Positions 38,401 through 39,123 of a stretch of 64,000 nt of DNA are shown piece after piece. The notes below the pieces were generated by a model that worked only from the letters and a program-made list of their open reading frames with translations, did no database searches and had not been told where the DNA came from. The DNA is from Candidatus Latescibacterota bacterium (lineage in GTDB: Bacteria; Krumholzibacteriota; Krumholzibacteriia; WVZY01; JAKEHA01). Position 1 is the stretch's first letter, and each line of letters opens with the position of its first letter. The stretch is from positions 1,760,001-1,824,000 of the forward strand of contig OY970173.1 in assembly GCA_963707635.1 (NCBI GenBank), in the 5' to 3' direction. The position numbers and the translations under genes are program-made.

Positions 38401-38531
38401 CGGTCGTGCGAGGGAAAGTGCGGCTGCGCGACGGCAGGAAGGTGTGCGACGCGCTCGAAGTCGTGCCGACCGAAGAAGGGATGGGACATGGAGAAGCTTC
38501 CCCTGACAACCCGGCAACGGGAGATTCTTGA
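35445..38531 (+). CDS. DNA polymerase III alpha (DnaE) homolog with degenerate active site
   Basis: PHP start FVHLRV.S.YS...ALTD...GIKPIYG, YLLGLTSFDP, SIEGLP, C-terminal OB fold. The PDxDxD and GRGS motifs are not conserved. Confidence 0.85.
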   Translation: MTTRNVRPFVHLRVLSSYSLGLGLSTPYEICQHARRVGFDSVALTDVSGTYGFVEFHRAAREAGIKPIYGVLVFLDWRNPPERDDTPHWLTLLALDRAGLRHVSAAASISAIRRERGDGLFVADLEGITDGVVAIAGAAPRPDHPSPRHLFAPLVEMFHDRLFVESRAGLAGDHAAAQERVLADASVLGVSPVLVQDVRFVGPARPQLEDLLASADDRAFEHRVFGDARTGGAGADDGMRTAADMSEWYESNAEAYSNAAVIAALVQPDLLDALEENPSAAPAGSLAPAPDARITLRMRVDAAFARAAAEMDVPGRAALRGILDRELDALARTGLESAFLKFEAIARRARDAGIALGPASGLAFQSKCAYLLGLTSFDPYAVDEGFHPAFVDAVGDGCVLDVQVAPDDRPRLLAVLNRAFDDASVGYVPTVEHITAARALRIVAKRLGVSASEYEDAARVASRHQGVSLRELAEENRTIGIMYRQSAAFRELVSHAASIEGLPFGFARTKRTLVVSPRPLRDFLGYTVSPDTGEHFVQSTRDSFPTGAVSRIDVSTLHALAVLGSSAAGWDGDRTRGSGYELIEADDLDGIYLLEGAPRRLARAFGIQAFDDLVLFVALMRDRTSSLSLGDRLVAFRGEPLTTPAEATVGNVLATTNGWLLFKDQVRDVVARLTGLASDEAARLAHRFRDHSPGNLAALRREFLSLTVEQSVSFEDATAWFGRLVRYAPQVMDRQRVIAECLITDRCLAMKAAHPLEFMARVLDHAADEERRARYREALERGRRWLPPDLRKSGRGFRVEGKGIRAPLWTIDGVTRDVSDRILRARGLAGISAPDELLIQTVREYGVSNTSIEALVAAGVVRSGTGLEVTPEPATRGASHGGTAPAQLGMSLEAEPEPAALAPAHKEGNSGQAFRVLPTVLEFYPHPNATPVELVGRIRNLREFRSAAGKPIGFFELFDASGSVRVFAPWDHVVRAGEPLRDGSRAVVRGKVRLRDGRKVCDALEVVPTEEGMGHGEASPDNPATGDS

Positions 38532-39123
38532 GTACATGGGTTCGTTCACGCGCGAGGCGGGCTATCCGCCGACGGTGCGCGAAATCTGCAGCGCCACCGG
38601 TCTCCGGTCGCCGCGCTCGGTGAGTCAGCACCTGCAATCGCTCGAGCGCAAGGGCTACATCCAGCGCGGCCGCGACAAATCGAGGGCCATTCGTTTCCTC
38701 GAGCGCCCGGAGTCGCTGGGATCGGCGGGCACGGACGCAGTCGTGTCGCTCTCGGTTCGCGGCCGGGTCCTGGCCGGCCCGGCCACCATCCCCCCCACCG
38801 TCGACGGACCGAGCTACCTGGTCGATCGCGCGCTGTTCGCGGGACCCGATCACTTCCTCATGCGAGTGGAAGGCGATTGCATGGCGGACGCGCACATTCT
38901 GAACGGGGACTACATCGTCGTGAGCCCCGCACCGGAGGTGCACACCGGCGACATCGTCGTGGCCCGCGTGGGGTCGGAAGTCGCGGTCAAATGCTACGAG
39001 TTGCGAGGCGACGGCGCGTTTCTCGTCTCCCAGGGCGGGTGGTTGCCAGTCGATGGACCGGGGCCGCAGGTGGAGATCGTCGGCCGCGTGGTCGGGCTGA
39101 TTCGTCCCGCTTCCCCCGCATAA
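38488..39123 (+). CDS. lexA: LexA-like repressor with catalytic Ser replaced by Cys
   Basis: LTTRQREIL...GYPPTVREI...HLQSLERKGYI...SRAI; GRVLAG; VEGDCM; GDIVVA; VAVK; IVGRVVG. Confidence 0.85.
   Translation: MEKLPLTTRQREILEYMGSFTREAGYPPTVREICSATGLRSPRSVSQHLQSLERKGYIQRGRDKSRAIRFLERPESLGSAGTDAVVSLSVRGRVLAGPATIPPTVDGPSYLVDRALFAGPDHFLMRVEGDCMADAHILNGDYIVVSPAPEVHTGDIVVARVGSEVAVKCYELRGDGAFLVSQGGWLPVDGPGPQVEIVGRVVGLIRPASPA

Follow-up and report, generated by a model that had tools for sequence, protein, structure and literature searches.

The lexA variant and its gene neighbourhood

The window, by which we mean the whole stretch of 64,000 nucleotides that was analysed, carries an unusual lexA gene in the following setting:

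33272..34579, + strand: purA, conserved upstream landmark
34643..34718, + strand: tRNA-Lys(TTT), conserved upstream landmark
34860..35423, + strand: wrbA/flavodoxin-like gene, a recent insertion outside the conserved unit
35445..38531, + strand: full-length DnaE-fold protein of 1028 residues (PHP, palm, thumb, fingers, HhH and OB; no C-terminal domain), overlapping lexA by 44 nt
38488..39123, + strand: lexA variant of 211 residues, with a winged-helix DNA-binding domain and an S24-fold domain that has Cys at the nucleophile position
39284..39359, + strand: tRNA-Glu(TTC), conserved downstream landmark

The 211-residue product matches the domains PF01726 and PF00717, scores 153.2 bits against a cut-off of 110.95 for the NCBIfam model of lexA (TIGR00498) and has an AlphaFold model (pLDDT 78.8) that matches LexA structures. 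Its functional elements are these:

38608..38634, + strand: recognition helix SPRSVSQHL, residues 41-49, seven positions of which are invariant in the best 120 homologs
38773..38778, + strand: Ala96-Gly97 (GCCGGC), the predicted scissile bond, corresponding to E. coli Ala84-Gly85 in the alignment with solved LexAs
38878..38880, + strand: Cys131 (TGC) in GDCM, replacing the nucleophile Ser119 of E. coli in the same alignment
38989..38991, + strand: Lys168 in VAVK, the predicted general base, corresponding by that alignment to E. coli Lys156
39028..39048, + strand: shortened Omega loop SQGGWLP, recognised from segment lengths and the AlphaFold model; the loop of canonical LexA is eight residues long and contains Pro-x-Asn

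By definition, S24 enzymes are Ser-Lys proteases. The original prediction, made from the DNA of the window, had singled out the replacement of GDSM by GDCM, together with the retention of the Ala-Gly site and of the Lys in VAVK, and the alignment with E. coli LexA bears out these three points. It had also called the recognition helix unusual, and SPRSVSQHL does not figure among the 15 helices most frequent in 75 LexAs taken from outside the group. Having seen the Cys, it nevertheless overlooked five further departures from the same 75 proteins (Arg for Val79, Ala for Pro87, Ala for Thr154, Ser for Pro169 and the loss of Asn171), as well as the lack of the catalytic motif in the DnaE homolog encoded upstream; the window copy additionally has Cys at the position of Arg157. 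Compared with canonical LexA (MEROPS S24; TIGR00498; E. coli, PDB 1JHF/1JHE/8TRG), the protein shares the two-domain layout, a score above the HMM cut-off, the Ala-Gly bond, the Lys base and most of the pocket for RecA-Phe203, while differing in the Cys for Ser119, the missing Pro169-x-Asn171 loop, the recognition helix and the lack of any box seen in this genome in front of recA or of its own operon. Two defining features of Ser-Lys enzymes, the Ser nucleophile and the Pro-x-Asn Omega loop, are absent, and although it would likely act in the manner of LexA, the protein is not filed here as a canonical member. A search by title and abstract, with most subscription papers outside its coverage, returned no study of a natural Cys LexA or of a Krumholzibacteria LexA.

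The conserved unit is ordered purA, tRNA-Lys, dnaE-like gene, lexA and tRNA-Glu, with the dnaE-like gene lying directly 5' of lexA in all 20 relative loci fetched. In the window, the wrbA-like gene ends 21 nt before the dnaE-like gene, and the original prediction had taken this flavodoxin-like neighbour as fitting a redox link. Such a repressor would be gated by oxidation of Cys131, which would switch either cleavage or DNA binding, and a Cys placed beside a Lys could have a low pKa and be oxidisable. However, none of the 20 relative loci has the wrbA-like gene, 12 of them covering its position, and of 32 metagenome loci only 2 have it, those nearest to the window in sequence; hence it is a recent insertion, and the link through the flavodoxin-like gene is not borne out. 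Nor is a second Cys fixed near the site, Cys169 being found in 2 of the best 120 homologs, and we regard redox gating as quite improbable. On the other side of lexA, just past tRNA-Glu, the window has a gene for a Ser/Thr kinase with TPR repeats (39518-42379); a kinase lies near that tRNA in only 2 of the 20 relative loci.

The DnaE homolog encoded upstream of lexA

Two motifs characterize the protein encoded by the dnaE-like gene:

36639..36653, + strand: degenerate polymerase motif V399-L-D-V-Q403, replacing D401-x-D403-x-D405 (E. coli numbering) in the alignment with the intact DnaE1 and DnaE2 of the same genome
38103..38120, + strand: QLGMSL, a motif resembling those that bind the beta-clamp, conserved where DnaE1 has its motif QFGLF

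Its structural model (pLDDT 87.6, pTM 0.82) has its best fold match in Pol III alpha (E 1e-45), at about 21% sequence identity with the DnaE1 of the genome and with a score of 114 bits versus the DnaE2 cut-off of 939. The positions equivalent to the catalytic residues D401, D403 and D555 are V399, D401 and D553, so that the first Asp is gone and the motif holding the first two reads CVLDVQV; moreover, the motifs GRGS, FERxLNPER and GFNKSH are gone in all the full-length homologs that were aligned. None of the 32 locus proteins or the 19 top representatives longer than 400 residues has the full Asp trio, which 126 of the remaining 129 hits possess. Judging from these residues, the window protein is likely inactive as a polymerase. 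In some of these incomplete proteins Glu stands in for the first Asp, the second or both, and these might retain residual activity. A clamp-type motif of the form Q-x-x-(x)-L/F is kept in most homologs of the class, and QLGMSL has the look of a putative beta-clamp-binding motif.

Clear orthologs of this protein are present in 33 of the 36 genomes of the order, and in four other families of the class, 20 regions chosen by hand have divergent dnaE-like forms ahead of tRNA-Glu or lexA. Within one subgroup of the genus (L039-L042, L038) the HhH region is deleted and the OB domain kept, yielding proteins of 926-944 residues. A sister family has eight loci without lexA, and seven of their DnaE proteins end at the clamp-type motif. 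A further homolog of 1180 residues (P0227), set apart from this family by its motif, is also devoid of the catalytic Asp trio, and other dead lineages of DnaE may therefore exist.

With DnaE1, DnaE2, DnaE3, PolC and 'DnaEX' the window protein and its group share the whole fold, differing from them in the incomplete catalytic trio. One survey of C-family polymerases calls D401, D403 and D555 absolutely conserved, having admitted intact sites only (PMC3919608), and section 14 of another lists four C-family groups, none of them inactive (PMC12926913). In the portions of text consulted, neither survey describes an inactive DnaE group, though their supplements (among them Fig. S5 and the list of DnaEX in PMC3919608, and the PMC12926913 data files) may affect how new the group is. 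A comparable known system is the lexA-imuA-imuB-dnaE2 cassette, which likewise combines a LexA-controlled extra DnaE without the C-terminal domain and a dead polymerase, ImuB, as the clamp-binding part (cf. PMC3919608, PMC12926913, for the portions consulted). In the window, by contrast, the dead enzyme would be the C-family DnaE itself, far below the DnaE2 cut-off, with no adjacent imuA or imuB and with lexA downstream, the real cassette being elsewhere in the genome.

Operators and the second LexA

Residues S41, P42, R43, S44, Q47, H48 and L49 of the recognition helix are those invariant in the best 120 of 585 homologs, and the helix is not tied to the Cys, for Ser-bearing relatives have it too. 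Where an intact Ser LexA is encoded downstream, the dnaE-like promoter has a palindrome between its -35 and -10 elements. Within two mismatches, CTAWAC-N4-GTWTAG is found in 7 of 7 loci of one family, with a half site in 4 loci of another, and the form CATAC/TATAC-N4-GTATG occurs at the dnaE-like promoter in 2 loci of the window's order, the consensus being drawn from the same loci as were counted and the CATAC pattern from two genomes. Among 15 loci without lexA in the operon, 14 are at least four mismatches away from the palindrome and one is at two. An independent test came from a third genome, G131, in which a perfect palindrome of the CATAC pattern precedes the dnaE-like gene and the LexA has a helix identical to that of the window protein. 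Genome-wide counts of the palindrome in genomes with Ser LexA do not exceed the control; therefore, the ancestral regulon was likely the dnaE-like-lexA operon alone, as far as these counts indicate.

The situation differs in the window's own lineage. In 27 loci of the window's family, 19 of which reach at least 3.6 kb upstream, the operon start has no operator of the deduced type, and the genus as a whole shows no enrichment (17 sites versus 17 in the control). Other genera have 36 operator-type sites versus 15 in the control, and the sites inspected have no repair gene in common. In the window's genome, no site stood out in a scan with the ancestral matrix (top score 15.8), the eight ATAC-N4-GTAT sites are about what chance would produce, none of them lying before a repair gene recognised by a crude gene caller, and no box was seen at recA; inspection by eye of the regions upstream of recA in 29 loci revealed no shared palindrome either. 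The different operator that had been proposed from the helix is supported for the Ser relatives having the same helix, as CATAC-N4-GTATG at the operon promoter, while no such site turned up at the operon of the window's genome or family, where a changed motif may still serve.

DnaE1 is intact in the same genome, where an imuA-imuB-dnaE2 cluster about 52 kb away is headed by a second LexA that retains Ser, Lys and Pro-Glu-Asn. This second, intact LexA is present in 12 of 17 genomes of the genus, while DnaE2 exceeds its cut-off in 21 of the 36 genomes of the order. A different palindrome, AGACA-N2-TGTCT, lies between -35 and -10 at the loci of the second LexA (L337-L348; G000 contig C1, ~1851640, minus strand) and is conserved in the 11 upstream regions shown, making it a candidate operator for the cassette. 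This box does not precede the dnaE-like-lexA operon and is found at one mismatch in 1 of 30 recA loci.

A few other elements were encountered during the analysis of the promoters. In two genera whose LexA has lost the cleavage residues, a YATAC-N4-GTATG site occupies the same intergenic region beside a gene resembling those of ECF sigma factors (L271 of G095 and L286 of G101); the uncleavable LexA could bind there, or the site may be a sigma promoter. In one family (L190, L191, L194, L198) the stretch from the operator to the start of the dnaE-like gene contains a conserved leader, about 130 nt upstream of that start, which is possibly a structured RNA, although Rfam had no match to it in two of these loci; on four loci Rfam returned tRNAs only. 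In the 5' leader of recA in the order (loci L051-L079; G000 contig C1, ~2417345-2417470, minus strand, outside the window), a G/C-rich stem has the loop GGCTGG or GGCCGG, which matches a downstream CCAGCC or CCGGCC. Rfam found nothing in the leader of locus L061; loop and downstream partner co-vary in some genomes, and a pseudoknot RNA is possible.

Constraint on the cleavage residues and the function of the Cys LexA

At the nucleophile position, the best 120 of the 585 homologs have Cys in 91 cases, Ser in 28 and Leu in one; the 75 LexAs from outside the group have Ser throughout and never Cys. The codon for Cys131 is either TGC or TGT among homologs, and the residue is retained at 57-89% identity along with synonymous change, with named relatives at 68-69% identity being labelled as Candidatus Krumholzibacteria or Latescibacteria. 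Two contigs from other public runs (contigs, not raw reads) span the codon with no listed difference. The original prediction had considered that Ser in reads or close homologs would expose the Cys as a sequencing error or a private variant, TGC being one base away from AGC and TCC. This explanation is ruled out by the 91 homologs with Cys and the contigs of other runs, and its chances are negligible: Cys131 is real and common to the clade.

The ancestral Ser codons are AGC and AGT, and the Cys codon TGC is again one base from AGC. The Cys could then be a neutral step from AGC to TGC in a relic gene on its way out, as lexA has been lost from the locus in many lineages, being missing behind the dnaE-like gene in 15 of the 29 loci examined. 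The frame is, however, open in the genomes of the genus, with Cys in 14 of 15 and Ser in one, and both the invariance of the helix and the persistence of Cys across diverged homologs speak against decay, which we consider very improbable.

Trees were built from 144 distinct sequences and then from 69, the latter without the columns of the nucleophile and the Omega loop. Both separate two groups with Cys, C1 and C2, with Ser-bearing sequences in between, even if a single Cys clade is not rejected (AU p 0.14), so that Cys may have had one origin or two. Clade C1 comprises the window gene and its genus and has a tree length of 13.3, with 94 sequences counted, 93 with Cys and one with Ser; a 95th member, P0086, which has Leu at the nucleophile position and a C-terminal deletion, is excluded from these counts. 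Clade C2 comprises 11 sequences from four other genera of the family and has a tree length of 1.8.

The two clades have treated the cleavage residues very differently. In C1, Ala96, Gly97 and Met132 have undergone no change, Cys131 one change (to Ser) and Lys168 another, as compared with 10 changes at the mean C-terminal site. Ala96-Gly97 is present in 94 of 94 members and Lys168 in 93, the exception adjoining a one-residue deletion, and these frozen sites show varying synonymous codons while the residue stays. In C2, Ala96, Gly97, Met132 and Lys168 have changed 11 times versus once in C1 (binomial p ~8e-10, a rough value given that the counts come from parsimony, the sequences are related and the sites picked after looking); hence the fold can do without these residues. 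Ala96 alone has changed five times among the 11 members, making it the most relaxed of 177 sites, and the Ala-Gly bond is lost in seven of them. Among the 10 sites most relaxed in C2, out of the 177 compared, six are positions of the cleavage loop, the active site or the RecA pocket. In the codon comparison, the lone deviant codons at 97, 132 and 168 come from L328, a C2-type sequence. C2 thus appears to behave like a LexA that has stopped cleaving, and C1 does not. This evidence needs to be weighed with the fact that 29 of 110 C-terminal sites in C1 are frozen as firmly as the catalytic ones, and therefore packing or structure could explain part of the conservation signal.

The adjoining Omega loop has followed another course. 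The Asn171 equivalent has changed 38 times in C1 versus once in 27 Ser relatives, and the loop segment has 17-20 residues in C1 as compared with 21-25 in the Ser relatives (3-6 shorter), folding in the AlphaFold model into a tight hairpin of strand, two-residue turn and strand. The Asn of this loop contacts both nucleophile and base in all structures of PMC12984324, at least in the portion consulted. Pro169 is replaced by Ser or Ala in C1, as it is in all three lineages without cleavage residues, namely C2 and the decayed copies L021, which has no cleavage loop, and L022, which has neither Ala-Gly nor Ser. As to the pocket for RecA-Phe203, defined by six positions taken from the accessible part of bioRxiv 2023.10.30.564768, five remain hydrophobic or Thr in C1; the Val79 position has Arg or Lys in 86 of 94 members of C1 and also in 7 of 27 Ser relatives. 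The Phe of RecA is kept in 30 of 30 loci.

Would a LexA so altered still cut itself? A serious but tentative answer in the negative is that the repressor is locked, its cleavage loop sitting permanently in the old active site, with Ala96, Gly97, Cys131, Met132 and Lys168 kept for packing, and that it either keeps a non-SOS target constitutively repressed or is eliminated by some other route. The shorter loop without Pro169 and Asn171, the repeated loss or decay of lexA in sister lineages, the missing operator at the operon and the service of the SOS mutagenesis genes by their own Ser-type LexA would all fit this possibility, as would the DNA-binding domain of C1, which is constrained at least as much as in Ser relatives. 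There is also a precedent in the uncleavable LexA of Synechocystis PCC 6803 (PMC3091678), which, like the uncleavable CI of phage 186, has a changed nucleophile position, 186 CI having in addition a shortened Omega loop (PMC12984324). Yet those two proteins, as described in the parts of these papers that were available, have lost Ala-Gly or the base and have no nucleophilic residue, whereas the window clade has a thiol instead, with Ala-Gly and Lys frozen. Clearly dead relatives (C2, L021, L022) have quickly lost Ala-Gly or Lys and C1 has not, despite a tree seven times longer than that of C2, and its nucleophile site is filled by Cys, rather than Ala or Gly, in 93 of 95 members.

A working Cys-Lys self-cleaver is favoured because the cleavage sites are nearly frozen in C1, while the same sites have changed 11 times in C2. 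Our main reading, to which we assign a probability of about 0.5, is that the window gene encodes a LexA-derived repressor which would still cut Ala96-Gly97 through Cys131-Lys168, probably at an altered rate, and which is encoded behind a likely inactive DnaE that the Ser-bearing ancestor likely repressed. Altered autocleavage, as originally proposed, is accordingly retained as the best reading by conservation, without its redox-sensitive part. An E. coli LexA with Ser119 changed to Cys was reportedly still cleaved, in both the alkaline and the RecA reactions, in the work of Slilaty and Little in 1987. The swap is the same, even if that mutant is a single engineered change in an intact site, whereas the change seen here is natural, extends to the whole clade and comes with a remodelled loop. 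Against the preferred reading stand the loss of the Asn171 equivalent, the shorter loop, the replacement of Pro169, Arg or Lys at Val79 and, in the window copy, Ala at Thr154, as well as P0086 with its Leu and deletion, the failure to find the operon operator, the loci from which lexA is missing and the second LexA in most genomes of the genus.

Mechanistically, Lys168 would activate the thiol of Cys131, which would attack the Ala-Gly bond once the loop has docked, with activated RecA presumably remaining the trigger; the Asn that contacts a Ser nucleophile would no longer be needed, in keeping with the shortened Omega loop. The wider scheme starts from what is observed in the Ser-type lineages and at the locus, namely residues, conservation, gene order, the lost polymerase motif and the promoter palindrome. 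Because of the operator, the motifs and established SOS biology (PMC10020695 and PMC8565304, in the parts consulted), the ancestral circuit may be pictured as a two-gene autoregulated operon: DNA damage would activate RecA, LexA would cut itself, and the DnaE homolog would be made, binding clamp and DNA without synthesis. Later lineages would have lost lexA, or its cleavage residues, or, as in the window's genus, exchanged Ser for Cys and remodelled the loop beside it, with bond and base retained, the repressor now presumably binding a site other than those recovered by the scans.

A bolder proposal joins a natural, working Cys-Lys LexA to a hitherto undescribed DNA-damage module of the class, in which a full-length, catalytically dead Pol III alpha would sit on the sliding clamp and primed DNA. 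There it would either put a brake on replication or, as the C-family equivalent of ImuB, scaffold lesion bypass, its expression being governed by a new LexA operator with a palindrome of the CATAC/TAWAC-N4 type; we consider this combination rather unlikely as a whole. If a clade does run the reaction on Cys-Lys, it offers a natural test of the dyad and of the Omega-loop Asn, with Ser, Cys, reverted-Ser and dead relatives forming a series. The seemingly inactive DnaE, kept with its clamp-type motif across the order and beyond, and having a LexA-type operator in lineages with Ser LexA, may matter more than the LexA itself: if real, it would be a new part of the bacterial response to DNA damage, and its operator would add a motif to the LexA catalogue. 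Should the LexA prove uncleavable, it would be another repurposed paralog beside an interesting pseudo-enzyme.

A minor observation concerns the Ser-bearing member of C1 (L009 / P0047 / L312), which uses the codon TCG inside a clade with TGC, its ancestors having AGC or AGT; it has likely switched between the two sets of Ser codons by way of Cys.
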